A DNA stretch of 64,000 bases, taken from a virus. Taxonomy: Duplodnaviria; Caudoviricetes. The DNA is taken from positions 14,975 through 78,974 of IMG/VR virus record IMGVR_UViG_3300032328_000934; one strand, given 5' to 3'. Shown in pieces: positions 9,303-46,600 of this stretch. Numbering within the stretch: position 1 is the first letter of the stretch; each line of letters opens with the position of its first letter. The notes under the pieces were generated by a model. That model worked only from the letters and a program-made list of their open reading frames with translations, was not told where the DNA came from and ran no database searches. A program made the position numbers and the translations under genes.

Positions 9303-9608
9303 CTATTTGACCAACTTATCGAAGTTGGCCAAGGCTATTTGCGAAGCTGACCGAGCCACCGCACGGCGGGCTGTGGCCTTGCCATCGGCGAACCCCGATT
9401 GATAGCCGTCATGCAGACCACGCAAACGAGTAGCGTTTACTATCTCGTCTACTTTCGAGGCCAATGGACGGGCGGTCAACTCCCGCCGGAGCTCAATTCG
9501 CTCCTTGAGGAGCTTGTCGACGACCTCGACTGCGTTGCGGTTTGAGAACCACCACGCGCCAAGGGTGAGGACGTTAGCGAGGATGAGAGCGATTAGTACG
9601 TACTCCAT
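9303..9608 (-). CDS. membrane-anchored hypothetical protein
   Basis: N-terminal TM helix, GxxxG-type repeat; GGAG SD before ATG 9608. Confidence 0.7.
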   Translation of the reverse strand: MEYVLIALILANVLTLGAWWFSNRNAVEVVDKLLKERIELRRELTARPLASKVDEIVNATRLRGLHDGYQSGFADGKATARRAVARSASQIALANFDKLVK

Positions 9609-9684
9609 GATGTTCTCCAATATACTAAACGAATAATACCAAAATCCCCCACACAAATACATGTGTGAGGGATGGACTAATGAC

Positions 9685-10083
9685 CTACAGACAATAATCG
9701 AAATGTTTGACTATCGTTTGTAGTCCTGCGGGAGACGCAGGTACGACGAAGCTGGGTGCCCCGTCCCAACGTCCTAGTGGGAAGTCCCACACCCAGCACT
9801 GACCGTTGGTTAACTCAAAGCCGACTGCCCGACCCGAGTATCCGGCGTGTTTCTCGATGAACTTAATTAGTCCATCGTTGTCGCCGAGTAACTCTTCGAG
9901 CGTAAAACCCTCGGTGGCCACCCGATTTGCGGTGCAGTCGTTGCACTCGCACTCTGGGTCGAACTCACAGCGTTTGGGTGTAGCGGACTGCTTTGCCGTG
10001 TGTTCGAGGAAGGTTGCCCAGCCGACCTTGCACTCCTCACACAGGCATTGGGCCATACCAACTTCTTCGTAAGTGCATTCCAT
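9685..10083 (-). CDS. Cys-rich hypothetical protein (two CxCxxC motifs)
   Basis: CLCEEC and CECNDC; AAGGAG SD before ATG 10083. Confidence 0.7.
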   Translation of the reverse strand: MECTYEEVGMAQCLCEECKVGWATFLEHTAKQSATPKRCEFDPECECNDCTANRVATEGFTLEELLGDNDGLIKFIEKHAGYSGRAVGFELTNGQCWVWDFPLGRWDGAPSFVVPASPAGLQTIVKHFDYCL

Positions 10084-10104
10084 GTTAGTCTCCTTAATTA
10101 AACG

Positions 10105-10145
10105 AATAATACCATAATACCCCAAACAAACACATGTGGGGAAAC
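10105..10145 (-). promoter_or_regulatory. conserved leader motif P (putative phage-type promoter or operator)
   Basis: Minus strand TTCCCCACATGT..TGTTTGGGGTATTAT; further copies at 9632-9672, 10881-10920, 11440-11474, 12085-12122 and 12813-12848, each 20-40 bp upstream of an SD. Confidence 0.7.
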
Positions 10146-10167
10146 TTGATTTCTCCGAACCTCACGG

Positions 10168-10252
10168 TATTCGAAATCTCCGAGCCTCTGGGATGAACCG
10201 TTAGCCAAGCCTGACATTATTCGAAACCTCCGAGCCTCCGGGATGAATCGTT
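10168..10252. repeat. 35-bp direct repeat x2, 50-bp period
   Basis: tattcgaaa(t/c)ctccgagcctc(t/c)gggatgaa(c/t)cgtt at 10168-10202 and 10218-10252. Confidence 0.85.
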
Positions 10253-10270
10253 CTACACATGGTGAGCAGA

Positions 10271-10391
10271 CATTAATCGTGCAAGGGAGGGGGCTTAATG
10301 CAGGGCCATCAACCAACCGCAGTTGGTTGGTGCCCTGCTGACAACACCATTCAGTAATTCGCGCACGAATTACTGAATGACCCGAGCGTGG
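10271..10391. repeat. twin-hairpin element H, copy 1
   Basis: About 120 bp, near-identical to 11496-11617; hairpins at 10300-10338 and 10348-10379, both with CGCA loops. Confidence 0.9.
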
Positions 10392-10416
10392 AACACCACG
10401 GCGAAGCCGGGGTTGT

Positions 10417-10452
10417 GCGATGTCTGTTCGCCGCTAGGCGATCAGACAGAGC
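10417..10452. repeat. hairpin element K, copy 1 (identical 36-bp copy at 12233-12268)
   Basis: gcgatgtctgttcgccgctaggcgatcagacagagc; stem GTCTG.TCGCC/GGCGA.CAGAC. Confidence 0.85.
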
Positions 10453-10453
10453 A

Positions 10454-10526
10454 GGGACCAGGGCAGGGGCTTTGGGCAGGGACCAGGGCAGGGGCTTTGG
10501 GCAGGGGCTTTGGGCAGGGACCAGGG
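10454..10526 (+). repeat. G-quadruplex-consensus tandem repeat (12 G3-4 tracts)
   Basis: Units of gggcaggggctttgggcagggacca; shorter copies at 11629-11656 and 12202-12229. Confidence 0.85.
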
Positions 10527-10586
10527 TTGGCGATGGCCGTGCGCTCGCAAGCGCGCAGCCATCGCGGGGAAGCTAATCGCAAGCAT

Positions 10587-10625
10587 AAAAAAAGGAGACA
10601 CACAACCCGAGGGTTGTGTGTCTCC
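10587..10625 (-). terminator. intrinsic terminator T, copy 1
   Basis: 15-bp inverted repeat followed by T7 on the minus strand, directly after the cassette stop. Confidence 0.85.
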
Positions 10626-10632
10626 GGTCGCA

Positions 10633-10854
10633 CTACAGGTAGTGCGCGAAGTGGCGAGCGAGGCTCTCCACCGATTCGGCGGTGTTTGGCCCGGACCAGA
10701 CCGGCGAGTCGTCGACGCCCGGGACCGCGTCCCAGACGACGACGGTCCCGCCCCACGCGGTGTCCCAAGTCACCTCACGCCCCACACGGGACGCGTTGAG
10801 AGCGATGACGACCAAGAGGACGGTGATTGAGTGGCGAGTTGCTGAGTTGTTCAC
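10633..10854 (-). CDS. cassette gene 1, hypothetical protein
   Basis: GGAG SD before GTG 10854; bracketed by motif P and terminator T. Confidence 0.6.
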   Translation of the reverse strand: MNNSATRHSITVLLVVIALNASRVGREVTWDTAWGGTVVVWDAVPGVDDSPVWSGPNTAESVESLARHFAHYL

Positions 10855-10983
10855 TGTAGTCTCCAAACACTAATGCAGAATTGCATAATACCCCAAACAA
10901 ATACATGTGGGGAAATGCAAGTAACGAGTGAGTTAACATTAATCGGATAACCCAGGGTGCGTGGAGGAGCTAATCACAAGGAT

Positions 10984-11022
10984 AAAAAAAGGAGATACAC
11001 AACCCTCGGGTTGTGTATCTCC
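10984..11022 (-). terminator. intrinsic terminator T, copy 2
   Basis: ggagatacacaaccc-tc-gggttgtgtatctcc plus A7 on the plus strand. Confidence 0.9.
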
Positions 11023-11028
11023 GTGTGG

Positions 11029-11406
11029 TTAACGACCCTGAAGCCAAGGGTCGTTGGCTTCAGACTCGGGGTCGAAGTCCCCGTTGGATTCGGCCTCGGG
11101 GTCGAACCGCTCGATGCCGGTCGGGCCGTCCCCGTTCCATCCCGGGACCCCACCCTCCGGGTCGTGTTGCCAGTACTCCACTGGCACCGCCGGTTTCTCT
11201 TCCCATGGCGCGCGGGGGAAGGGTGTCGGCGGGTACGGCCGTGGGGCTGGCTCGTCATCCTCGTCGTCGAGGATGGACCGGTCCGGTGCGGGTGGGGTGT
11301 GGATGGTGAGGCGCGCCTCACCGTAGACCATTTCGACGACCACGCGTGTGGCGCCGAGTACGGTGACCGTGGAGTCGGACGGGACGGTAATTGTGAATTT
11401 AGGCAT
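11029..11406 (-). CDS. cassette gene 2, small beta-rich N-terminus with acidic/Pro-rich disordered tail
   Basis: 125 aa, AAAGGA SD, bracketed by P and T. Confidence 0.7.
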   Translation of the reverse strand: MPKFTITVPSDSTVTVLGATRVVVEMVYGEARLTIHTPPAPDRSILDDEDDEPAPRPYPPTPFPRAPWEEKPAVPVEYWQHDPEGGVPGWNGDGPTGIERFDPEAESNGDFDPESEANDPWLQGR

Positions 11407-11495
11407 CGGTGTTTCCTTTCTGGGAAACTATGCAAGAATTTGCAAAATACTCCAAACATATACATGTGGGGAATAGTGTATACGGAGTGAGTTAA

Positions 11496-11617
11496 CATTA
11501 ATCGTGCAAGGGGAGGGGCTTAATGCAGGGCCATCAACTAACCGCAGTTAGTTGGTGCCCTGCTGACAACACCATTCACTAATTCGCGCACGAATTAGTG
11601 AATGACCCGAGCGTGGA
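11496..11617. repeat. twin-hairpin element H, copy 2
   Basis: Hairpins at 11525-11563 and 11573-11604, each with one compensatory base-pair swap relative to copy 1. Confidence 0.9.
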
Positions 11618-11682
11618 TGTATGGACCAGGGCAGGGGCTTTGGGCAGGGACCAGGGTGCGTGGAGGAGCTAATTGCAAGCAT

Positions 11683-11721
11683 AAAAAAAGGAGATACACA
11701 ACCCTCGGGTTGTGTATCTCC
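11683..11721 (-). terminator. intrinsic terminator T, copy 3
   Basis: Same hairpin plus A tract. Confidence 0.9.
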
Positions 11722-11727
11722 GGTCGG

Positions 11728-12054
11728 TTAATTGGCCAACATGACTTCGTAGTCAGCGGCCGTATATACCTGCAAGGTGAACTCTGCCTCGAACCGACGG
11801 CGTCCCTTGCCAATCCACCGAGTCCCTAAGCTCATCCACGTCCAGCCCCACAGCCGGTATTGGGAAGACTCCACGGTGTGGTACCACCCAGCCACAACAC
11901 GGTCCGAGATGGCTTTCGCGGACTGCGGACATGCTAAGAGCATGGCCGAAACGGGGTCGGTGGCGACGCGACGCCAGACGACCTCGCGTAGGACCTGATT
12001 CGGATGGACACGGCTGAGAGATGCTCGCACTGAGCCGACGATGACGTATTCCAC
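11728..12054 (-). CDS. cassette gene 3, hypothetical protein
   Basis: 108 aa, AGGAGG SD, GTG start, bracketed by P and T. Confidence 0.7.
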   Translation of the reverse strand: MEYVIVGSVRASLSRVHPNQVLREVVWRRVATDPVSAMLLACPQSAKAISDRVVAGWYHTVESSQYRLWGWTWMSLGTRWIGKGRRRFEAEFTLQVYTAADYEVMLAN

Positions 12055-12288
12055 AGGAACCTCCTAACTAAAGAAAAGAATTCAAAATCTCTCAAACACC
12101 TACATGTGGGGAAATGCAAGTAACGAGTGAGCAGACATTAATCGGATAACCCAGGGTTGGGGGCTTCATCGAGGCCTTGGCCGAGATGCGCGAGTGACCT
12201 AGGGCAGGGGCTTTGGGCAGGGACCAGGGTTGGCGATGTCTGTTCGCCGCTAGGCGATCAGACAGAGCGGGGAGCTAATTGTAAGCAT

Positions 12289-12327
12289 AAAAAAAGGAGA
12301 TACACAACCCTCGGGTTGTGTATCTCC
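12289..12327 (-). terminator. intrinsic terminator T, copy 4
   Basis: Same hairpin plus A7. Confidence 0.9.
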
Positions 12328-12334
12328 GTGTGTG

Positions 12335-12778
12335 CTACCAACGGCAGGCATTTTCCTGCTTCGTTGCGTAATTGGCGTCTGACTCGGCTGAGTCGATGGC
12401 GGCTTGCATGTGCCAAGCCGTCCATGCCTTAGTGCCGAAATTCATCGCTTCAAGAGCGTGTTGCTCTGCGCGATGGGCACGGTAGGCGTCACTCCAACCG
12501 TTACGGGTTCCGCGACGGTGAGCTGCGGCCAAGGCTGATTTGGCTTTGTTGCTCAAGCGGATTGCCCAGACGAATTCGACGAGCATTTCACAGGCGGTGA
12601 GGACCAAACCCACGACTGCGCCGATGGCAAGGCCGTACTCGGAGGCGGCGTACGAGTAGAGATACCACACCGCACCGCCGAACAAGGTCGCGCACACCAG
12701 TGCAAGGACGAATGACCGAAACACCAACGCGCGAACGATTACGAACAACATGTTGCCGAGATTGAGAATGAGTGACAT
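12335..12778 (-). CDS. cassette gene 4, membrane protein (2-3 TM helices)
   Basis: AAAGGA SD before ATG 12778; hydrophobic N-terminal half. Confidence 0.7.
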   Translation of the reverse strand: MSLILNLGNMLFVIVRALVFRSFVLALVCATLFGGAVWYLYSYAASEYGLAIGAVVGLVLTACEMLVEFVWAIRLSNKAKSALAAAHRRGTRNGWSDAYRAHRAEQHALEAMNFGTKAWTAWHMQAAIDSAESDANYATKQENACRW

Positions 12779-13053
12779 GGTTGTTTCCTTTCTAAGAAAA
12801 CTATTGCAAAAATTGCATAATACCTCAAACATATACATGTGGGGAAAGCGCAAATGACGGATAAGGTAGCATTGATCGTGTGAGATACAGCATGACGAGT
12901 GAGAAGACACTGATCGTAACTGACGCGCACATGAAGGATAGCTCGCGTACATGGGGGGTAGACACAAAGGCCACCACTCAGACTTCGCCCCACTCCCCTG
13001 TCATACTCAAATTTTTAAAAAACACTACGACCTGTTTTGCGTTCCTGCCGCTG

Positions 13054-13892: not shown

Positions 13893-15344
13893 CTACTGCG
13901 TTAGTGCAGTTAGTGCAGCGGATGGATCGTAGCGATCATCCATAATTGTGGACAACATGACAGACTCTGCGGTGATGCTGTCAAGATTGCCTGACAGCAC
14001 ACTCTTCAGGATTGCCGGGGAAAAGCCACTGACCATCGCAGTATTGCGGTCGTGTTGCGTGACGCTCTTATCAAGGTCACGTACCTCGGCTTGGTTGAGG
14101 TTCCAGAATATGACTGTTGGGGCAGTGTATCCTTCGGCCTCATACTTGCGACGAATCATTTCGATTGCGCGATCGTCGTGTTTCACACAGGCATTAAACT
14201 GCATGTCCGACAGGATCAGCAACACTTGTGGCATTTCCTCTTGCGATACCTTGCCTTCCTTGGCCACGCGTAAAATCTCTTCAAGTGCGGCGTTCAAATC
14301 GGTACTTGTTTCCCAATGTGCACGAGACAGTTGATTAAATTTCTCCACAATGTTTCCCTTAAGAACTTGCAGTCGCGGTTTTGACGAAAAAGTCAAAAAC
14401 GTGTCCTTAAACGGGCCAAGGTTTTTGTCAGCGACGTACATACCCAACGAAAGAGCGACGCTCAACGCGGTCAGGCCACTCTTTGAAAGCGACACTGAAC
14501 CCATTGATCCTGAGACGTCAACGAGGGCGAGTACTCGTGCGTCCCCGACATAGTTGGGAAGCGAATTCCACTGCTGTGCAATGAAGCTCGTCTCAACCTG
14601 CCCCAAGCGATGGAAGTTTTGGCTAAGCAAAGAGACAATCACATCGTGAGGAAAGATTGCCCCAGCGTTTACTTTAACCCCTTCCTTATTGCTCTGCAAA
14701 TCGCTCACATATTGGGTGTACGCCTGCTCTGCATTGCGATAAAACGCTTTGCGGTAGCGAGCTGCGGCGACTGACGGGACGTGTGAGAAGTTAATGGAAT
14801 CCCAATCCTTCGCACACATCTTCGTCTCAACCACGTTGGTGAGCGAGACCAACATGGTACGGTATTGCTTCCAGCTCATTAACAAGTAGCAACGCAACTT
14901 GTCTGCAACAGGCCCTTTGCGGGGCATCCACTTCGCGCATAACGGATTCTTCTGCTCGAGTCCTTCGGCGATTAGGCTGAATGCGAACCGTTGGCAGCGT
15001 TCAGTCTCGAACACGAGGAGATCATCCCAGCGACCAAGTTCGGAAACGCGAGTGGCCAAACCCATTGCAAGCAACGGGCGTGAGACCTCGAGTAACCGCA
15101 AAATCTTGCGGAAAAACTCACGCTCTCCAGCTCCCTTACGCACATCACGGCCCCACAACGCAATGCGAAGTGCGTACATTGGGTTTTCAACCAATGCGGC
15201 GGTGAACGGGGCAGTAATGTCGGCGTCACGGTACTCGCTTACACTTGAAAAAAGATCAAGGCAGCGACTACCACTTGAAACAAGGCTCTTCATGCCATTC
15301 TCAGTCCGGGTTGTCTGGGCCATCACGGCCTGTGCAAAGGTCAT
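13893..15344 (-). CDS. Ro60/TROVE-like RNA-binding protein with C-terminal VWA domain (DUF2828-type)
   Basis: RDVRKGAGER, GRWDDL, AKWMPRKG, VPSVAAARYRKAF; MIDAS DVSGSMGS, T and ILSDMQF; AAGGAG SD. Confidence 0.85.
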   Translation of the reverse strand: MTFAQAVMAQTTRTENGMKSLVSSGSRCLDLFSSVSEYRDADITAPFTAALVENPMYALRIALWGRDVRKGAGEREFFRKILRLLEVSRPLLAMGLATRVSELGRWDDLLVFETERCQRFAFSLIAEGLEQKNPLCAKWMPRKGPVADKLRCYLLMSWKQYRTMLVSLTNVVETKMCAKDWDSINFSHVPSVAAARYRKAFYRNAEQAYTQYVSDLQSNKEGVKVNAGAIFPHDVIVSLLSQNFHRLGQVETSFIAQQWNSLPNYVGDARVLALVDVSGSMGSVSLSKSGLTALSVALSLGMYVADKNLGPFKDTFLTFSSKPRLQVLKGNIVEKFNQLSRAHWETSTDLNAALEEILRVAKEGKVSQEEMPQVLLILSDMQFNACVKHDDRAIEMIRRKYEAEGYTAPTVIFWNLNQAEVRDLDKSVTQHDRNTAMVSGFSPAILKSVLSGNLDSITAESVMLSTIMDDRYDPSAALTALTQ

Positions 15345-34668: not shown

Positions 34669-37600
34669 ATGGCCGATGAGATACAGAAAGCAACAGAAGA
34701 TTTAAAACTACTGTTGCAGGCTTTGGAGGCTGTCAACGCAACTGAAAAGGGAGCAGCGCAGATTAAACCAGTGCTGGCAGAAATAGGCGGTAAAGAAGGT
34801 TTAGACGCATATAAAAGTGTAGCTGATTCAGCTGAAGCAGGAGTTTACCTGAGTCAATTGAACTCAATGATCAAGGCGCACGAGCAAATAAATAGACTTA
34901 TTCAGGAACAGATTCAACTAACTAAAACAGCAACCGAGTCAATGTCATCAAAACCAGCTCAAGGGGCAGATCAGTCTTGGTGGAATACAGTTGAACCCGC
35001 CCAAGTCTCAGTTCAAGCTCCAGCTCCAGCAGTCCCTGCTCAAGCCCCAGCAGCTCCGAGCAGGCCTGCCCCCGTGCGTGTGTCGAGATCTTCAAGTGAA
35101 CCGGTTGTTCTTCCCGTAGATCACAGAGATTCTACACAATACGCTTTGGTAAGCAGCAACACGGCACCGCCGTTAAGAAGTAGTGTCGGAAACCGCCCGC
35201 AAGGAGTTTCTGATACAGAATCAATTATTAAATACATTTCGGAAAATCCACATTTGCTTGCAACTCCTGCGGGTACCTACGACGAGGCAACAACTAAGAA
35301 AATAGTATATCTTCAACAATTAGTTGAAAGGGCATTGAAAGGGAAATCGAATAAAAATGCAGAAGCACTAATAGTCAATCAATTCAGAAGTTTATTTCCT
35401 GTAACAAAGGACTCTACTTTTCGTCAATTACAGGGCAGTGTAGGAGATCGTCCTGCTGGAATGGACTCACTTGAAAAAATTGTACAGTATGTCTCACAAA
35501 ATCCCGAGCAATTGGCGGCTGTTTCTGAAAATACACATACTGAAGAGACTGTTGAAAGATTAAATTCTTTTTTACAAGGGATTGCAAAAACTCGTTCGGG
35601 ACGTGCTGACTCTGCAACTAGAGTTCAAACTGTACTTGATTTTAGAAAACTTTTTCCTAAAGATTCTTCCAAAGTTGCAACCCAAGATTCACGCGCCGTA
35701 CTTATCGATACAATAAAAAGCGTGTTTAGTCATATAGGCATGGCTGATATGCCAGCCATTCAAAATTTACCTGAAGCAAACGACCAGTATATAATGGATC
35801 TTTTAAAGGATTCGATTGCGCGAGTCGGGGTAGTTAATCCGGATACAGGTCGGGTGAACGTAGCCAACTTAGAAGTCACACCTACGCCCTCAAGACTGGT
35901 TCGCATTATACGTGGATTAGGGAGAGTTGTTAAACAAGCAATTACGCGCCGTTCAGTCAGCACATCTGAGGTAGACGCGAGTGATCTATCTGCAGAAGTA
36001 ATAACACAAGTAGAAGATTTTAGAGAATCTGACCCTATTGAAGAACAGGTGCTGGCTGATGAAATAGGCGGAAAAATTTTTAAACCAATAGGTAATAGTG
36101 GCGGTGGCACAGTCTATGCGAGATCAAGCAGGTTTACAAATAATAAAGCGCAAGAGTCGTTGCGAAATTCAATACGAGGTAATAAAGATTATAAAGAAAA
36201 TGTAGAAGAAATTCAGGATAAAGTGGCTAATGCTCAAGGTACTGATGTAACTGGCTATGATGCTTCGTCCGTATTTCCAATATCTAGTGTTCAATCAATA
36301 TCCCAAAGTATTAAGGCCCAACGCGAGCAAGTAAACGAAGAAATTGTTGCCGGTAAGTTTAAAGAAGTTGAAATTGGCGGCAGAATTTACAGATTACCTG
36401 AAACTTTAGCAAACAAACAAGTGGCTATTGCTCGCGCCGCTCACTCGATGAGTAAAGATACTAGTCTTGTAGGTAGACGCGCTCGAAGTGATAGAAAAGG
36501 TGGCATAGGTATTTACGGTGCCGCTTCTATACAGGATGAGACAATCAACTTACACGCCGCGGCAATGCTCGAGCATTATCTTAGCAACCCAGAAGAACCA
36601 ATAGAATCTAGTTTAGATTCTCAGTTTATGCGCGAGGTTGTAACTCAAGAATTAGATATAGATCAGCCTAGAGATGCTAATACTCAAAATGCTTTGCGCT
36701 TGTATGCACAACGTTCTATAGAATCTTTGCAATCAACAGCTGACTTTGCGTATGAGAATGTGGCCGCAGCTACAAACCCGGCAGGCAGGACTGCACAAGT
36801 AAACTTTGCAGAACGGACATTGCAGCAAAAAGCATTTATAGAAAAAATTCTTTCAGCCAAGACTTCCAGAGAAGAGCGCGGCAGGATGTTAGATATACCT
36901 AAGCGTGTTTTGACCCCAGAATTGCAAGAACAACGAAATCAAATACAAAAGAAAGCAATTCAAAATTTACTAGATCAAGGTCATAGTGCAGATAAAATAA
37001 AAGAACTTGCAGAAAGTTATGCTGAGGGTACATTAACTCCTGAACAGCGACGTCCACTTCAGGAGTTAATCGACTTTGATACACATAATGAAAGAACCGT
37101 AGAAGTAGAGGGTGAGTATGAACCTTTAACAATTGATCAGGCATTAACGTATATCTACGGTGCTGATATTGCAGCAGTACCTAAGTTTGAGGACGCCTCC
37201 ATAGGTATACGAAGATATGCTACTAAAGTCAGCAAAGGGCTTGCTAAAAAGGGAGTCGCCCGTCCGGCAAGGCCTTACCGAACTAAAACTACTTTCGGTA
37301 AAATTATGGGTACTGCAACAAATGAGGGAATGTACGAATCGCTGGATGATAAACTTAAAAAAGAATCTAGTTTTGAAGATCAGCTGAGCTCAGTTGGGCT
37401 TAGAGGTACAGAGCGTGATTACCGAGATGCAGAAAGACCGGGTGTTGCTCCAGATACTGCACTAACCGGTCCTAATATGACTCGACCGTTAATGATGCGG
37501 CAAGAAATATATGATTTAGTAGACGATTTTTTTGGGCTCTCTACTGATAAAAACGCTGGCCTACTGAGCACCGTCAACTACGCGAGTCAACTCACAGATG

Positions 37601-40600
37601 GAAAAAGTGCAATAAATACTCCAGAGGAGATAAAACACACATACGATTATTACGCAGATCCAGAGGGACTAACCCCTAAGGATGCGTTAGGTTCTTTATT
37701 TGCTGGTGCTGAGGATTTTCGTAGTTTAGCCGACACAAGTCTACCTATAATTGACTATGCAAAACTAGCTACAAAAGAGTCGAGGTCTGAGTATGAACAG
37801 AGTGCATTAGATACAATTCAAAAACGAAACCCGGCATTTGCTCAATTTGACGAAGATCAGTTAAAGCGATTAGCCGCCGTAGATGTGACCAAGTCGCCTA
37901 AACAAATCGTAAGGCAAATAATTGAGATTATTGGTAAACAAGTACAAGAAGCAATTATAAGAGCCAGCACTAGAATACTAACAAGGCAAATGCAAGACAA
38001 GGCGTTAACTGACGCAGCCCAAAATGAAGATGGAATTCCGGGAATTGCTGGATTTACATTAGATCAGATAAAAGCGTTGGCCAACGCTGATACCTCAGAA
38101 TTACCATACGATCCAGCATTAGATAGTAGCGACGAAAATACGCGATCTGAAGCCATGCAACGACGCGATGAGCGGGCGTATGAAATAGATGTAATAAATC
38201 AAGTTAGAAGAACAGCGGCAGATGCAGCAAATCAAGCAGAATCACAAATTCAATCCATGCTCAATGATTACGCGACAAACGGAAATCGACCAAGAGATAA
38301 AGCGCAGGCGGAGCTTTTTGATGCTCTTGATTTTTTTGAGTTAGATACTTTTGATAACGACCTTGGTATAAACAGCGCATTTGGCCTAATTGATCGAGTG
38401 ATTGAAGATCAAACTGGTGGCATGAGTCAGCTTGACTTTTTCTCAAGTACGATGGGAAATGCTGTACCAAACTCTTCGGTAGCGGTTGACTCGAGTGAAG
38501 ACACGAGAAAGGCTGTGTTAGAAATCGGCCGAACTACTGCTCAAGAAGAAGCCGGAAGAACAACTGGTGTCACTGCTGTTCGGCGTAAAAAAGATTACGG
38601 TGAAGAGTATGACAGTAATCAACAATATGCTGAAGGTTTAATACAAAAATCGAAAAGTGCCGATGAATCCAAACGCAAAGAAGCTTTGCAAACTATTGCA
38701 ATGCATCGAGCAGTTGCTAAGCAAAGGGGTGGCGATCCAGCAATGTGGGCGTCTGAGGGCTTGATCGGGCAGGAAGAGGGGTTTAGTGGAGACCATGTAT
38801 CAAGAGCCATTCAGTTCTTAAATTACACCGCTCTGCAAAAAAAAGCTGCGGCAGGTGACACAGATGCACGGGAGGAAGCTGCTCGTATTGATGAGCAACG
38901 TGCTCTAGTTCGAGAACGCGCTTTGAACGTGGACGAGACCGCAAGGTTTCAATATAACCCCATACTTGGCGAAAGAGCCTATATTACAGTAAGCCCGTCG
39001 GGTCGAGAACTGTTACAAGGAACTCCTTACTCAGGTCAAGTTAAAACAGCAAATATGCAGGACGAATTTGGGGAGGATGTATACGAGACTGGAACTGACA
39101 TGAATCCGTTAATTGATTCGATTGAGAAGGCTAGTCTCCCTACGTTCCGTGAATCAGGAAATCCGGAATTGTACCGAGAGATGGTTTTGCTACGAAATCC
39201 AGACTTGCGAGCAATAGTTGCACAGACCAATCGGCAACTTAATCAAATAGGAAACGAGGACATAGATTCCGATTTTTTTCCCAGTGACTTAAATGATACC
39301 AGCCCGGGCGGACAGGCTGATCAAATAGACGATATGATATTGCAATTATTGAAGCGCAGAGAAGAAATCAAAAAGAAAGATAATAGAGACATGGGGCAGA
39401 CCGACTCGCCTATTCTCTCCTACTCTGCGGAAAGGTTGGTTGGTGAGCAATTAGGTGAAATGTCTACCGACGCGTACAATCGATTACATATAAACTCCGC
39501 TGCTTCATTACTTAGTGAACAAGAACGCGAAAGTTTAACGCAGGAGAGAGAAAATCTTATAAGAGACACTGGCTCAGTAAGGAAGTTTAAGCCAAGTTCA
39601 GCAAAAGAGAAAAATCGTTTACATGAAATAAACAAAAAACTTGCACAAGATTCTGCTACGAGAATGGCAATGGATCCACGCTTTGCGACACCGACCGGTA
39701 TTGGAACACCTCAGTTACTTGAGGCTATTGCACTAACTGCGGAAAACCCTGACAGAAGCGGTGTAGCAAACAAGGCAATTGAAATGTTGGCTGAGCTAAC
39801 GCCCGAAGAAATAGATTTTTTAAATACACTTGACTTAAGTGACAAAAAGAAGCGCGAGGAAGCTATCAAAAACGGTCCTACATCTGTTGTAAACTTACTT
39901 AAAAAAATAAATTTTAGAGACCCCGCTATTAAAAAGCTTTTAGCTAGCAATTATACCTTAAATATTGGAGAAGAGTCGACGCGTCGAGGAGATAGAACTT
40001 CACCAAGAAACCCAAGGCAAGCAGCTAAAAGAAGTCGGCTTCAATTAGCCAGCGATGCACTTGCAGTAAAAGAAACGGATGATTTAGGAGCATTTGTAGA
40101 ACCCGCAGAACCTAAAAGTAGTTTTAAAGTAACAACCAATGAAGATTTAATTAAGCAGATTAGGGCGTTAGATCTCGATACCGAGGAAGGTTTAGCGGAA
40201 GCCGAAAAGGTGGTAAGAGCTTCAGAGTCAGAAACGCCACTTCCCGAAGATCCAACTTTAAGAAAAGACATAGTAAAGTATTTAGTAGCTAGGTACGTAA
40301 AAAATCTTAGCAGGCCACAATCTGCACCGACGCAGTCGAGGGCTGGAGCAGTCGTTAAAAATCTGAAAGGTGTAAACGCGGTTGTTGCAGCGGAGCGTAG
40401 AGGTGAAGGTGTTAGTACACTTCGTAAACAGGGTGTAGGTGATGCACACTACGGTAACCCGTTCACACTGCAAAAACCACAAGCCGGTGAAGTACCAGTA
40501 ACTTCAGTTAAAGAAGCGGTCGATCGGTATAAAGCGTGGTTGGCAGGAACCGCCGATCAAGATGTCAAACCGGAACAGCGCGACTGGATTCTTTCACAGA

Positions 40601-43600
40601 TTGACGCGGGTGCTCTTGATGACCAAGATCTTCTGTATTACACTCAATTGAACGAGCCGTCACATGCCGATGCATTGGCTGAATTTGTAAATAATCGTAA
40701 GAGATCCGTACCAGAGCCTGAGGTTGCAACTGCGCCCGCAGTCTCTGCGCCTATGCCAGCACCAGCACCCAAAGCAGAAAAACCAAAAAGAACTAGAACA
40801 AAACGGGAGAAACCAGTTAAAGAAGTTACTCCCCCACCTGCTGAAATTGTAAAAGCTCCTGAACCGGAACCAATCGTAGTAGCTCCTGAACCAGAACCGG
40901 CCGTAGTAGCTCCTCCGCCTATATCAACTGAGACCCCTAAGCCTTCTAGCACTACCAGAGAAAGAATGACTTTGCAAGAAAGAAGGTCACGTTTGGTAGC
41001 ATTACGGTTAAAGCAAAGACATTTACCGGCAAACTCGGAATTGAATAAAAAGTACCTAACACTTCAAAAACGCAAGCCTGTTTGGTATGATGAGGATGAT
41101 ACAAATCTTGAAGCGGTAGAAGAGAAAATGAGGGAGGACTCGATTGAGCTTGGACCTCGCCACAATAGAAGCGCAAGAATAAAAGCGGCTAATAAATATA
41201 TAGATTCAATAGGAGCCCAAGTAGATGACTCCGCTGATAGCCCGCAATATGACGCTATTAGTAAGGTAAGCATGGCGAGTGACCTCGAGACAGTTGAAAG
41301 ATTAGAGTCGCGTCTTGGCTTAAGCCCGTACAAAGAAAGTCCTGTTGTACCTAGTGTAGCAACAACTCCAACACCTACTACACCTCCAGTAGCACCTTCT
41401 GAATCTACAGCTTTAGCTAGAGTTCCTAGTACGGCATTAGCTAGAGTATTGACTGCCGCCCTAGCTACAGTTCCACCCTCTACAGCATTAGCTACAGTCC
41501 CAAGCTCTACAGCATTGGCTAGAGTAGTAACTACAGCGTTGGCTACGGTTCCCGCCTCTACGGCGTTAGCTACAGTTCCAAGTTCCACAGCGTTAGCTAA
41601 AGTTATAACTACAGCGTTAGCTACAGTTCCTAGAATTGCAACTCCTGCACCCACAACCGTCACAGCTCCTACAACGCCGCTTCTTACTGGCCCGACAACT
41701 ACAGCATTAGCCACAGTGCCTAAAACTCCAGCTCCTGCAACACCTGCAACTACAGCTCCACCGGCAACAACTACAGCCTTAGCTGTGGTTCCTAAGACTC
41801 CGGCCCCTTCAACTGCGGCAACACCTGCAACTCCGACTGTACCTCCTGCAACTACAGCATTAGCAGTTGTTCCTAAAACTCCGACTCCTGCAACTCCTGC
41901 TCCTAAAGCTCCAATTATAACTCCACCTCCTGCAGCTGCTACGGCTTCGACAGTACCACTTCTTACTGGCCCTACAGCACCAGCACCTCTAATTACTTTT
42001 AGTGGAGAACCAACTGCTCCATTACCAACTATTACTGTTCCACCTGTAGCTCCTGCAACTGGACCTGCTGGGACTTCACCAAGAACTCCAAGAGCTCCAA
42101 GAGCTCCTAAACCAGCACCAGCACCAGCACCTCTAATTACCTTTAGTGGAGCTCCGACTGCTCCAATTGTTTTACCGACTGTTCCGCCTGTAACTGTAAC
42201 TCCAAGAGCTCCTAGAGCTCCAAGAGCTCCTAAACCACCACCGGCACCAATTGTTCCTTTTAGTGGAGCTCCGACTGCTCCATTACCAACTATCACTGTT
42301 CCACCTGTAGCTCCTGCAACTGGACCTGCTGGGACTTCACCGTCCACGGCTCCGTCTGGTGGTGGTATTACTGCACCGGGTGCAACTATTACAGTTACCG
42401 GCGGTACAGTTACCATTACCGGATCAACAGTTACTGGTGGAACGGGTGGCACTGGCGGTGCGGGCGGAAGCGGAACGGGTGGCACTGGCGGCACTGGTGG
42501 CGGTGGTGGCGGTGGATTCCGCAGAAGTAACCTAACTGACATGATTTTTGGTCAGATGGACGTACTAAGTGACAGAACTAAAGATGTTATACGCGCGGCT
42601 CCTGATGAACCAGCTCGAATAGCGCTTGTACAGGCAGCACGGGATCGATATGCAAAGTTACAACAAAAAGCATTGCAAACTCAAATAGACTACGGATCGC
42701 CGAGCATGATACTTAATCCTACGGTGCCCGGGCTTGTAGCGGGCTTAGATACTAGCAAAAATCCATTGCAAGACTTAAATACTATGACAGAGGCCGTGCT
42801 TCAGGATCAAATAGCTAGTGCTGTAGAAAGAGATCGAATTGAAAATGATCCAACTTTATCAGCCGCGGACAGAAAACTTGAACTCGCCGCCTTAGACGCA
42901 TCCGATCGAGAACTTAATGATTTTGCGGCCGTACTAAAAAAAGTTACAGAAGATCTCAATCGATTTCAGCAAGCGGTCCGAGTACCCAATACGGCATTTG
43001 GTAATACTTCTGGTAGGGGTGGTGGTGGTGGTGGCGGTCCAACAATTCGTACAGCTTCAGGTAAAGTATTGTCAGAGGCCGACGTACTGGCATTATCTGA
43101 TCTAGAAAGTAAACGAAATTTATACGCCTCCTTTCAAGGAAACCTGCCAAACTTAGGTTCTCGTTTTGATTCGCAATTAGATTTGACACGGAGAACTCGT
43201 AGATTTGCTGATGCAACACTTTCACAACTACCCGCCGTTGATTTAACAGGCGTTGACTTTATGGGCGACGTTGCAAAAGAGACTGCAGCAAATGCGGCAG
43301 CTGCTGAACTGCAAGATGCAATAGCACAGATAAAACCGAACACACTTGAAACTAGGCCTATTGAGGAACTTGCAGTTGATTTGTCGAGAGTTAACGAAGC
43401 GGCAATAAAACTTAACGACGTTATAGAAGGTGCTGGTAATGTAGATGCTGCACAAAGTGGTATACAAAACGTAGTAACAGCAACTGGATTTGCGGAAAGA
43501 CAGCAAGCAAGATCTGGTGCCGAGATTGATAAACAATCGGCATCAAATGCAAGAAACTTGGAAGAGAATATGCAGGCAATTGTCAGTCAGCCCGGATTGA

Positions 43601-46600
43601 TTCGCCGTCTAACCGGTGGTGTACAAAGAGAGGGCGCCCAGCATGTGCGTGAATATCTCAGAGGAATCTTCGGCGACTCTGCTGAAGGACGCAAGGCAAC
43701 TGACACTATGTTTTACAAAGATCAGATGGTTGCGTATGATGATCGAGGACGACGCCGTAATATTGTAGGTGCAAGTACACAAGAATTGCAGAACCTGCAG
43801 GCGCGAGTGAAAGCCGAAAGTGGCATGGACGTATCAATGGATGACCTCCAGCGTACTCAGCGTGCAATGGCTCGTGTTCAACAAGCCCGCAATCAATCAC
43901 CGTTTAATGACGTACTGTCGTACGGTATGTCGAAAATGCGGGATCTTGACTCACTTGGTCAAACTGTGATGGGTGTTATGAATGCACCCCAAACTATTGC
44001 ATCTACAATCAGTCAAATTGGCGACCCTCAACTTCGTACCGATCGCATAATGACCACAGCCAGAGCGTTGTCATTAAGTCCAGAAACGTACACCAAAGCG
44101 CTTGCCGCCGCTACGCAACAACAATCAAGATTTGGTGGTACACTGTCAAAAAACTTGGAGGACATGACCTCATTTATTCCTATATCGAATACGTACGGAG
44201 TGGATGTCGGCAAGTCAGTTCAAGTAGCAAGAAAGCTGGCCGCGTTTGACCCAGCACAAGGAATGCAAGGTGCAAGTATTGCGCTTAAAGAATTTTTATC
44301 GGGTAACGTGTCTTCATTGAGCCGTCGTTTCGAAATTAATCGTAGCGATTTGTCAAAGATCAACACCGGCGATGCGAACGAAATGTTGGATTCACTCGAC
44401 ACCCTTCTAGGTAAAATGGGTGTTACCGATAAACTTATTGACGATCAAGCGAACTCGTTAGCAACTAAGTACGACCGCATGACAGGTCGTCTTGAAACAA
44501 TGCAAGTGGGCTTTAGTGCATTCGCTGTTAATGCCATGACGCCAATACTTGAGCCAATACTTGGAGACAAGTCTTTCCTTGCAAAAGGTGCATTAGATCA
44601 AAATTTGCAAAAAGTTGTTACGGAGCGGTTAAAGTCCTATGGGGACTCAGTGCTAAGCGATCCCAAGACTGGATTAAAAACAGTAGATGTTTTTTCTTCG
44701 GATTTTGTTAAAAAACTGGATCCACTGTTAGGTGCAGCAAACGACTCAACTTCTACCGCTGCGTTAGATTTTACAGGTATGACTGGGAACGTGTCCAACG
44801 TTGAGTTGTACAGACGAATGGGTAATATGAGCGATAGCGATCGACGCCGTATTCAACAGAGTGCTCAAATGAGTGTACTGATGGGTATGAATCAAGAACC
44901 CGCAATACTTAAAGCTATGCGCGATGTGGGCGGGGACTTTTTTAGCGGCGAGGAATTTCAAGCACAAAGAAGACCGTTAGGATTCTACGGTCAAGCTATG
45001 GATGCACCGTTAAAAAGACAAATGCTGGATCAAGCAGAAAAGGGAATGAAATTGGGTCAGGAGGGTCAGCAGGTTGAAATTCTCCATCAAGTCGATGCGG
45101 ACACATATGACGTTAGAATGCCCGACGGTAAAAGAGAACGAGTTCGTCTTGCAGGGGTAGATGCTCCTGAAAAAAATACTAAGGAAGGTCAGCAAGCCAG
45201 TGCCTATGCTCGTTATCTGATTGGTACTGACCCTAATAACCCAAAAAATAAGAAAAAAACCGCTACTTTGTACTCAAAAGGTGACCGCGATGCTTACGGT
45301 AGACTTATGGGTAGTGTAGCAGTCGGTGGTCGTGATCTCGGTACTGCGTTGGTTGCTAGCGGTAGCGCGGCAGTCTATAACTTTGAAGGTAAATACGGTG
45401 AAGATCTTATTGCACCGTTGTCAGCACTAGAAAGAAATGCCGCAAACACAGGAATGGGCCCAATAAATGAGCAAGCCGCTCGATTAGGTTTGGGCGCTAA
45501 CTCGGAAATTTCACAAACAGTCAGAGATAAGTATTTTCGAGATAAATACATGAGTGTAGGAGGTCTCTACGGGGCTGTGGGTGGTGCTATTGGCGGCACT
45601 ATTCTCGGCGGTGTAAATGCCTTCACCGCACTTGGTGCAGCAGGTGGCGTAGCCGGAGCTGCAGGCGTAGCTAGTATACCGGTACTCCCGATTGCAGCGG
45701 GTATAGCTGCCCTCACCGCCGCAGGCACTATCGGTTACTCCGCGTATACAGATAGTAAAGATACTAGTGCCCCAAAAATGCGTGAACTGTACCGATTGCA
45801 AAGTGAGGAGGATTTACAAAAACAATCGGAAAACGTCGGTAATCAACTGTACAGACAAGCGGCGAGAGACAATCAAGCAAGAGCTTCTTTTGAACAAAAT
45901 GCAAAAAATCCTTTTCAGCAATTGTATGCCAAATCGTTTAATTATTTTAGTCCGACTGAGTCACAGAAAGCACGCGAGGCATTTGTAAGTCAGTACACTG
46001 AATCAGGCAAAGAGTTATCTAAGTATTATAATGGCTTAGCATCAGACCAAAAGAAAGTGTACGAACTGGTTGTTAATGATCCCGCAACAAAACAACGCAC
46101 AAGTGTATTTAAAGCAATTCAAATGTATCAATCGCTAATTTATCGCGATGCAGAAAAAACTGATATAGTTGCTCATACATTACTTGAGCAGAACGAAAGT
46201 AATTATAATGACTTTGCAAGTCGAGTGTACGACACCATGCAGGCATCAAAATTAATCGAAACTGCCCAAGAATACGGAATTCGAACTACGTATGAAACAC
46301 CGTATAAAGGAACTGGACCAATGGAGGCTCAACGTACCATGGGTACGGTAAGCAGTGTGATGGATCTGCAGCAGTTCTATGATCTAAGCAAAGAGCAGCG
46401 CGACTCTGTAGCAAAGCAGCTAGATGAGGCAATCAACACTCCAAGTTGGAAACGGTTTGCAACGGAATATACAGATCAAGCGATGGAAAAGCAATTTGCA
46501 ATGTCACAGCAGAGATTTACAACGTTTGTCGACAATACTGCATTGAACTCGTTGGCAGGTATGAATCCGGGTCAACTAAGTTCCTCCGTCTTTGGTTTTC

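Follow-up and report, generated by a model that had tools for sequence, protein, structure and literature searches.

What does a conserved pair of hairpins, termed here element H, do in the intergenic spacers of an uncultured tailed phage? The element was analysed in a stretch of 64,000 nt (the window), corresponding to bases 14975-78974 of the 78,974-bp IMG/VR virus record IMGVR_UViG_3300032328_000934 (Caudoviricetes), which is rated 100% complete. An independent ENA assembly of 79,019 bp was identical over the 15.8 kb compared, with its start permuted relative to the IMG/VR record; the samples containing this phage include ENA ERZ28593938. The third copy of the element (H3) and the origin-like region are given in genome numbering, and all other unlabelled coordinates in window numbering. 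Our tentative answer, drawn from sequence comparison and held at somewhat less than even chances, is that H provides a second line of transcript punctuation or insulation and is read as minus-strand RNA.

Copies of element H and their paired changes

H is a conserved element of approximately 97 nt composed of two hairpins. The two copies in the window, whose coordinates and sequences in an initial annotation of this DNA matched the letters, and a third copy found by a whole-genome search are listed below.

10300-10338, minus strand: H1 hairpin 1, with a 7-bp lower stem, an internal loop and an 8-bp upper stem (CAACCAAC/GTTGGTTG)
10348-10379, minus strand: H1 hairpin 2, with a perfect 14-bp stem (15 bp counting U-G on the minus strand)
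11525-11563, minus strand: H2 hairpin 1, upper stem CAACTAAC/GTTAGTTG
11573-11604, minus strand: H2 hairpin 2, arms CATTCACTAATTCG/CGAATTAGTGAATG
genome 14824-14902, approximately 70 nt left of the window: H3

The internal loop in hairpin 1 of H1 was a single bulged C on the plus strand. The hairpins of H1 and H2 all presented the loop CGCA on the plus strand, corresponding to UGCG on the minus strand. The two copies showed 93% identity over 131 nt, and within the 97-nt core they differed solely by the paired swaps claimed at the outset, namely a C-G pair of hairpin 1 that became T-A and a G-C pair of hairpin 2 that became C-G. The folds of H, when compared with those of dinucleotide shuffles, gave z-scores of -6.3 to -8.7 on either strand.

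Related phages were reached by three routes, which were the DUF2828 gene (contig L006), homologues of gene c located downstream of H2 (L091-L097), and a loop-anchored DNA pattern (L098/L099). Strict DNA patterns matched only contig L006 in IMG/VR. In the metagenome search by DNA patterns, the first pattern found nothing and the second, loop-anchored one detected a single 16.7-kb relative, Ga0315905_10003275, which was analysed as two pieces, L098 and L099. A covariance model trained on the first four H copies detected full H in L093, L094/L095, L097, L098 and L099, along with one further copy cut at a contig end. The distinct full copies numbered nine, three in this genome and six in five related phage contigs, besides the partial one, and they spanned six contigs, at least four distinct relatives and four gene contexts. 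The model found no H in approximately 80 more distant phage loci sharing the DUF2828 gene at about 50% identity, and public phage records contained no DNA match to the region, near or distant. A single Streptomyces match in the bacterial genome scan was rejected, as it lay within a coding sequence, lacked the hairpin and was compatible with chance. The Rfam search of the window gave zero matches at gathering thresholds and only chance-level ones at E up to 5.

Standard pairs occupied 268 of the 270 stem cells (99.3%) in the nine copies, and six of the 30 pairs had changed on both sides with no one-sided (G-U) state, although the copies are related by descent and recombination and the counts are not independent. 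Shifting the register by 1 to 3 columns lowered the pairing to 21-47%. The length of the 8-nt linker, both hairpins and the flanks were kept together in all nine copies. The check for covariation across homologues, proposed along with the first description of the hairpins, was therefore positive, and supported them as structure-preserving elements.

The variation in the stems was concentrated in the central dinucleotide of each arm, where the states were GU, CU, UC and CC in hairpin 2, and CC, CU, AC and a mismatched UC in hairpin 1. A parsimony count placed at least six of approximately nine inferred stem events within four of the 30 pairs (binomial estimate, ~3e-4). The H of L094 differed from H1 by only one compensated pair, while the neighbouring protein sequences were visibly different.

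Loop orientation and the origin of the paired changes

The initial annotation had taken the CGCA loop as invariant and, on account of wobble pairs and G tracts, favoured the plus strand. In the nine copies, the gene-strand (minus) loop was UGCG in 17 of the 18 hairpins, comprising nine of nine for hairpin 1 and eight of nine for hairpin 2. The exception was hairpin 2 of H3, which carried TGCG on the plus strand, the exact reverse complement of CGCA. The loop was accordingly near-fixed but not invariant. An unrelated stem at 10530-10565 (hairpin S2) had the same CGCA loop, as had been noted before, and its paralogues had GCTA. UGCG is a natural member of the UNCG/YNMG loop class (PMC5633025), in agreement with the earlier assignment of the minus-strand loop to the UNCG class.

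The sense-strand UGCG loop was common to five unrelated non-coding stem families, comprising two terminators (the spacer terminator T, and T5, which closes the minus-strand arm), each of the two hairpins of H, and S2. When hairpins of the lineage with a 4-nt loop were counted on the sense strand, UGCG occurred 30 times versus four times for CGCA. The loop of terminator T was C(UGCG)G in relatives, CGCA in L091/L092 and L094, and CGAG (three times) or CUCG (once) in this genome. In more distant phages with the DUF2828 gene, the sense-strand terminator loops were UUCG, UACG or UCCG 26 times, and the reverse complements of these were found zero times. The closing pair was C-G in hairpin 1 and terminator T, G-C or A-U in hairpin 2, and U-A in S2, the extra-stable form of the class being C(UNCG)G. 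On the basis of these comparisons, we regard UGCG as the habitual RNA tetraloop of the lineage. As the same loop in the same orientation caps the true terminators of the lineage, H would be read as minus-strand RNA.

The preference for the plus strand did not hold, since the two strands were equal in energy and the loop orientation matched that of the true minus-strand terminators. The predicted folding energies of H were -48.9 kcal/mol (plus) and -47.9 kcal/mol (minus) as RNA, and -31.4 and -30.8, respectively, as DNA, and each strand gained one wobble-extended pair. Wobble pairs and folding energies were consequently discarded as uninformative about the strand for the H and S hairpins. The corresponding values for terminator T5 were -34.0 kcal/mol for the sense strand versus -27.4 kcal/mol for the antisense strand.

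The origin of the swaps was examined in the best-matched orthologue pair, H3 and its counterpart in L098, which shared 95.7% identity over 6.8 kb. The non-coding comparison covered 430 nt (genome 14560 to 14990), approximately 333 nt of which were flanks. Four differences were present in the flanks and four inside H, all of the latter in the 32-nt hairpin 2. The changes, at 14895/14876 and 14887/14884, were symmetric about the hairpin centre and amounted to a compensated pair plus an exact inversion of the loop, the closing pair remaining A-U. At the flank rate, approximately 0.4 changes would be expected in 32 nt, and the Poisson estimate for four independent ones was ~1e-3, in which the symmetry was not counted. 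The terminators bore the same signature, as T1 was distinguished from T2-T4 by a compensated pair together with an inverted loop, and the T loops in relatives flipped between UGCG and CGCA. It has been reported that template switching in replication yields multi-base compensatory changes and full loop inversion as single events (PMC8794818). The absence of G-U intermediates and the transversion-type swaps (G-C to C-G and C-G to A-T) also fitted template switching. Concerted, symmetric changes with loop inversion above the flank rate thus pointed to this source, and it is likely that the swaps were generated mainly by a DNA-level concerted process, template switching in palindromes, with the stems kept perfect by selection or by repeated copying. 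The clustering of variation at the arm centres may reflect the position at which the switch tract is best anchored.

The scenario that the initial annotation had named as fatal to its proposal, in which swaps arise by template-switch correction while homologues show free loops and no covariation, was accordingly borne out in one half. The template-switch origin is likely, given the concerted changes above background, whereas the homologues do covary and their loop is nearly fixed with a biased orientation. The locus offers a compact natural case in which compensatory changes and loop inversions occur as concerted events, faster than ordinary substitution, and a caution that covariation in perfect palindromes is not proof of a specific RNA function.

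An alternative that we consider unlikely is that H is a functionless palindromic passenger of a mobile spacer, kept perfect by template switching or gene conversion and spread by recombination. Symmetric changes and loop inversion that outpace background substitution are what such a passenger would show, and the clustering at arm centres would follow from the anchoring suggested above. As the terminator stems were as conserved as H, conservation needs no specific recognition, and that of H alone is no proof of a sequence-specific reader. The L093 copy, moreover, contained two mismatches. A passenger would however be expected to have loops oriented at approximately 1:1, not 17:1, and the nine copies in four gene contexts kept their hairpins, 8-nt linker and flanks, with nearly all stem cells paired. 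H also remained intact where the adjoining spacer regions had been rearranged, as seen in the orthologous spacers, in which these regions were heavily rearranged.

Spacer modules and gene contexts

In every H copy, the order of modules on the gene strand was terminator T, block X, an optional set of hairpins S, repeats R and a mini-hairpin, then H, block A, optional E, and promoter/leader P. H therefore lies after a terminator and before the promoter/leader of the next gene, the position at which the initial annotation had placed it. The other modules of the window are as follows.

10594-10625, minus strand: predicted terminator T1, a 14-bp stem followed by U7, which departs from T2-T4 in a compensated C/T pair and in its loop, inverted to CUCG
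10991-11022, minus strand: predicted terminator T2
11690-11721, minus strand: predicted terminator T3, which in the sense direction immediately precedes the H2-bearing spacer
12296-12327, minus strand: predicted terminator T4
10530-10565, minus strand: hairpin S2, a 16-bp imperfect stem with the loop CGCA on the plus strand and UGCG on the minus strand
10417-10452, minus strand: hairpin S1, an S2 paralogue with the loop GCTA on the plus strand and UAGC on the minus strand
10454-10526, minus strand: R module, 12-13-nt repeats GGGCAGGGGCTTT / GGGCAGGGACCA
10155-10252, minus strand: E module, two 50-nt repeats with GAGGCTCGGAG on the sense strand, located upstream of the gene a promoter
10086-10144, minus strand: P module, a conserved promoter/leader with a TATTAT -10-like box approximately 45 nt before the ATG

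T1 to T4 were near-identical predicted intrinsic terminators, each with a 14-bp stem and U7, at gene ends on the minus strand. Block X was conserved and carried GCGATTAGCT, and block A carried CGATTAATG. The optional modules between X and H were hairpin S2, the C-rich repeats R, hairpin S1 and the mini-hairpin, and a further S copy with the loop GCTA was located at 12233-12268. The spacers occurred in a short form of approximately 125 nt and a long form of up to approximately 550 nt, and H was found in the long form.

The R module, of which shorter copies lay at 11623-11656 and 12196-12229, consisted of 53% C and 18% G in sense RNA, and its repeats fitted a G-quadruplex motif on the plus (template) strand only. 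As gene-strand RNA it is C-rich and G-poor and resembles a Rho-loading tract. Its copy number was very variable in relatives, reaching approximately a dozen units or more in L099, and its position was either before or after H. In the H2 spacer of the window, R was an apparent insertion between CCACGC repeats when compared with L006. The E repeats adjoined the promoters of gene-a homologues in two to six copies (L093:1860-1930; L094:860-985); in the E region of L094 an 8-nt unit was tandemly expanded, and an inverted E copy was present near H3. These repeats may represent a regulator-binding array. A P block preceded each gene of the array, and the other P copies were found at 9613-9671, 10857-10915, 11416-11474, 12056-12114 and approximately 12779-12847. 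The -10-like box of P was TATTAT or TATTTT without a consensus -35, and a scan gave no sigma-70 match in the array. The P block at 9644-9673, preceding the gene at 9303-9662, formed a 12-bp hairpin with a U-rich tail and was flagged as terminator-like, and this pairing was lost in the other P copies.

Several other candidate assignments were rejected. Block X contained a -35-like TTGCGA, but the following sequence was variable and had no -10, and an antisense promoter in the P module lacked a conserved -35. A T7-like promoter (ACTCAC in the A module) was discarded, as the proteins scanned included no recognisable RNA polymerase. N4-type DNA hairpin promoters require stems of 5-7 bp and 3-nt loops, versus 14 to 17 bp and 4-nt loops in H, and also a virion RNA polymerase, none being recognised in the proteins scanned. 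The integron attC site was dismissed for the absence of GTTRRRY core sites, small open reading frames across H for the absence of a ribosome-binding site, and a K-turn in the internal loop of hairpin 1 for the absence of tandem G-A pairs.

The minus-strand genes of the window extended from 18 to 26258, and the region at 9600-13000 was an array of small genes in five or six cassettes, whose proteins had no Pfam or other family match. The genes directly downstream of the two window copies are given below.

9685-10083, minus strand: gene a, downstream of H1, encoding a Cys-rich protein of 132 aa without family match
11029-11406, minus strand: gene c, downstream of H2, encoding a protein of 125 aa without family match

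The gene following H varied, being gene a for H1, L093 and L094, gene c for H2, L006 and L097, and, in L099, a homologue of the window gene at 9303-9662 (MEYVL gene). H3 and its L098 orthologue had no downstream gene; H3 was located after T5, and both copies were bordered on one side by the arm-end terminator and on the other by a terminator-like hairpin of the plus strand. The relatives L006, L093, L094, L097 and L099 kept the spacers and swapped the flanked genes when compared with the window. The spacers were visibly far better conserved than the genes between them. The G+C content of the cassette array (10001-12000) was 57%, versus approximately 40-50% across most of the genome, which suggests a different origin of its genes or spacers.

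Approximately 350 nt separated H3 and its orthologue from an AT-rich tract and an adjoining group of DnaA-box-like 9-mers. This cluster (L089:2420-2670, genome 14220-14470) contained TTATCCACA at 14242 and 14456, with TAATCCACA and TTGTCCACA nearby. It fell within a non-coding zone of approximately 750 bp where the gene arms converge, and was conserved in L098. The cluster may be the replication origin or a DnaA-titrating region.

The DUF2828/DUF7788/vWA gene (13893-15344, minus strand) was assigned to PHROG 850 'RNA-binding protein' and is Ro60-like. Ahead of it lay a TTGACA-17-TATTAT promoter of full consensus, with a long structured leader extending to approximately 15660, and at least 80 IMG/VR contigs contained homologues at approximately 50% identity. 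Within its coding sequence, gene c contained a perfect 18-bp palindrome, GGTGAGGCGCGCCTCACC, at 11305-11322, and the relatives shared its 7-bp stem, there with UGCG as the sense-strand loop. One tRNA gene was found outside the window (L089:591-662, genome 12390-12461, plus strand; Rfam RF00005, 62 bits) and none inside it. The only recognised domain in the 4665-aa open reading frame at 34669-48666 (plus strand) was a staphylococcal-nuclease fold at residues 3491-3595, and the product is presumably a giant tape-measure-like virion protein.

Candidate functions of H and related systems

H lies downstream of the predicted strong terminator T and upstream of the sole recognisable -10 box, and would consequently occur only in transcripts that read through T. 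The proposed role in transcript punctuation starts from these escaped transcripts. Two stable UNCG-capped hairpins may pause the polymerase and, together with the adjacent C-rich R tract, aid back-up termination; H may also, or instead, protect, process or mark the 3' end of the escaped transcripts. The next promoter and gene would thereby be insulated and, at the end of the leftward arm, the origin-like region. All of the contexts of H, among them the gene-less arm end that faces the origin-like region, fit a role linked to the zone of termination upstream rather than to the gene that follows. If H controls read-through or cassette exchange, it would represent a simple, portable insulator part.

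Several observations weigh against this proposal. The strength of the upstream terminator means that sense RNA across H is expected to be scarce. The H hairpins had no U-tract and were not flagged as terminators, the tail after hairpin 2 being GURUURUYR with 4 to 5 U in 9 nt. Perfect Watson-Crick palindromes without G-U fit a DNA-level element or process equally well, and the two strands of H folded equally as RNA and as DNA. To these are added the inverted loop of H3, the relatedness of the copies underlying the pairing counts, and the sole two unpaired cells, both of which belonged to L093, the most divergent copy, with one mismatch in each hairpin.

That H instead acts in DNA, by extrusion of hairpins or a cruciform in single-stranded or supercoiled DNA, is in our judgement about as unlikely as the passenger reading. 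Such an element could serve as a cassette crossover or recognition site, in replication priming, in binding a structure-specific protein, or in supercoil absorption between tandem transcription units. The two hairpins are perfectly palindromic whichever strand is read, their energies of folding as DNA are equal, and H co-occurs with G-quadruplex-type repeats on the plus strand. The proximity of H3 to the DnaA-box-like cluster and AT-rich tract, and the reshuffling of modules at short repeats such as CCACGC, also agree with a DNA-level element. Recombination has been mapped into the stem-loop of promoter-early stem-loop (PeSL) cassettes (PMC2839356), and this phage encodes a Holliday-junction resolvase and a UvsX-like recombinase. 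The bias of the loop toward the gene strand, as in the RNA terminators, is however not predicted by a symmetric duplex or cruciform, and the proteins scanned included no recognisable HUH or Rep protein, transposase or hairpin-reading polymerase.

A role as a specific cis-acting RNA or as a small-RNA gene, with H serving in put-like antitermination, as an RNase III site, or as a ligand or decoy of the DUF2828/vWA (Ro60-like) protein, is quite improbable. The put RNA of phage HK022 consists of two adjacent stem-loops, a layout similar to that of H, and hairpin 1 has an internal loop like the T7 RNase III sites. H1 precedes gene a and the following run of minus-strand genes, which would suit such a role if these are assumed to form a single operon, and the DUF2828/DUF7788/vWA gene is located 2.3 to 3.5 kb away. 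Against this, H is upstream of the sole recognisable -10 box of each cassette and so outside that transcript, H3 has no downstream gene, and approximately 80 other phages with the DUF2828 gene have no H. The suggestion that H is a separate small RNA was likewise not upheld, as neither a bracketing promoter or terminator nor an Rfam match was found. Least probable of all is that the central arm dinucleotide serves as a code, of address or of compatibility, which a factor of the phage or the host would read in sorting, recombining or regulating cassettes, which would imply an H recognised sequence-specifically as RNA or extruded DNA with the stems fixed and the dinucleotides free in matched pairs.

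Among known systems, the REP/BIME elements of enterobacteria number in the hundreds on the chromosome and are associated with RAYT transposases and with the binding of gyrase or IHF, with proposed roles in mRNA 3'-end protection and transcription attenuation. H resembles them as palindromes, imperfect or perfect, located after gene 3' ends, in variable mosaics with short motifs and with compensatory stem changes, but differs in its few copies, its fixed orientation relative to the terminator, and its restriction to one phage lineage. The RNase III hairpins of T7 and SP82 are located between early genes, inside the transcript, and the T7 sites have an internal loop. These sites and put resemble H as conserved hairpins in early-region intergenic RNA, with an internal loop like that of hairpin 1. 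They are, however, downstream of the promoter and upstream of terminators, whereas H follows a strong terminator and precedes the next promoter. A put-like antitermination position was rejected on this ground, H being downstream of T and upstream of the sole recognisable -10 box, and H3 being gene-less. The template-switch hairpins described by Mönttinen and Löytynoja (2022, PMC8794818) show the same pattern as H3 with its orthologue and the terminators, while that study concerns RNA genes (rRNAs and microRNAs) and a mutational mechanism, not a functional class.

The closest system is that of the PeSL cassettes of T4-type phages, in which terminator-plus-promoter units flank ORFans and mediate shuffling (Arbiol et al. 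2010, PMC2839356; Comeau et al. 2014, PMC4122927), the stem-loop being a terminator or attenuator that isolates the cassettes (PMC2839356, PMC4122927). In both cases, conserved composite spacers flank small ORFan genes in a variable region in which genes are swapped, deleted or reordered, and the unit holds a predicted terminator stem-loop, present four times here. The phage studied here differs in that it is apparently not T4-type, with a 79-kb genome and a giant tape-measure-like gene; no T4 core genes were named in the scan of approximately 30 larger proteins, which was not a search aimed at such genes. Its spacer promoter is not a full sigma-70 consensus, the full TTGACA-17-TATTAT being found elsewhere in the genome. 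Its spacers, moreover, occur in short and long forms, and the H, S, R and E modules of the long form are absent from PeSLs. H is thus a twin-hairpin module added to a mobile terminator/promoter spacer that is PeSL-like, and it varies a known theme without constituting a new system. The concept of mobile stop/start spacers, by which phages can shuffle accessory genes, is thereby carried over from PeSLs to an uncultured lineage of unrelated phages, whose spacer is richer in that it has extra structured modules between terminator and promoter.

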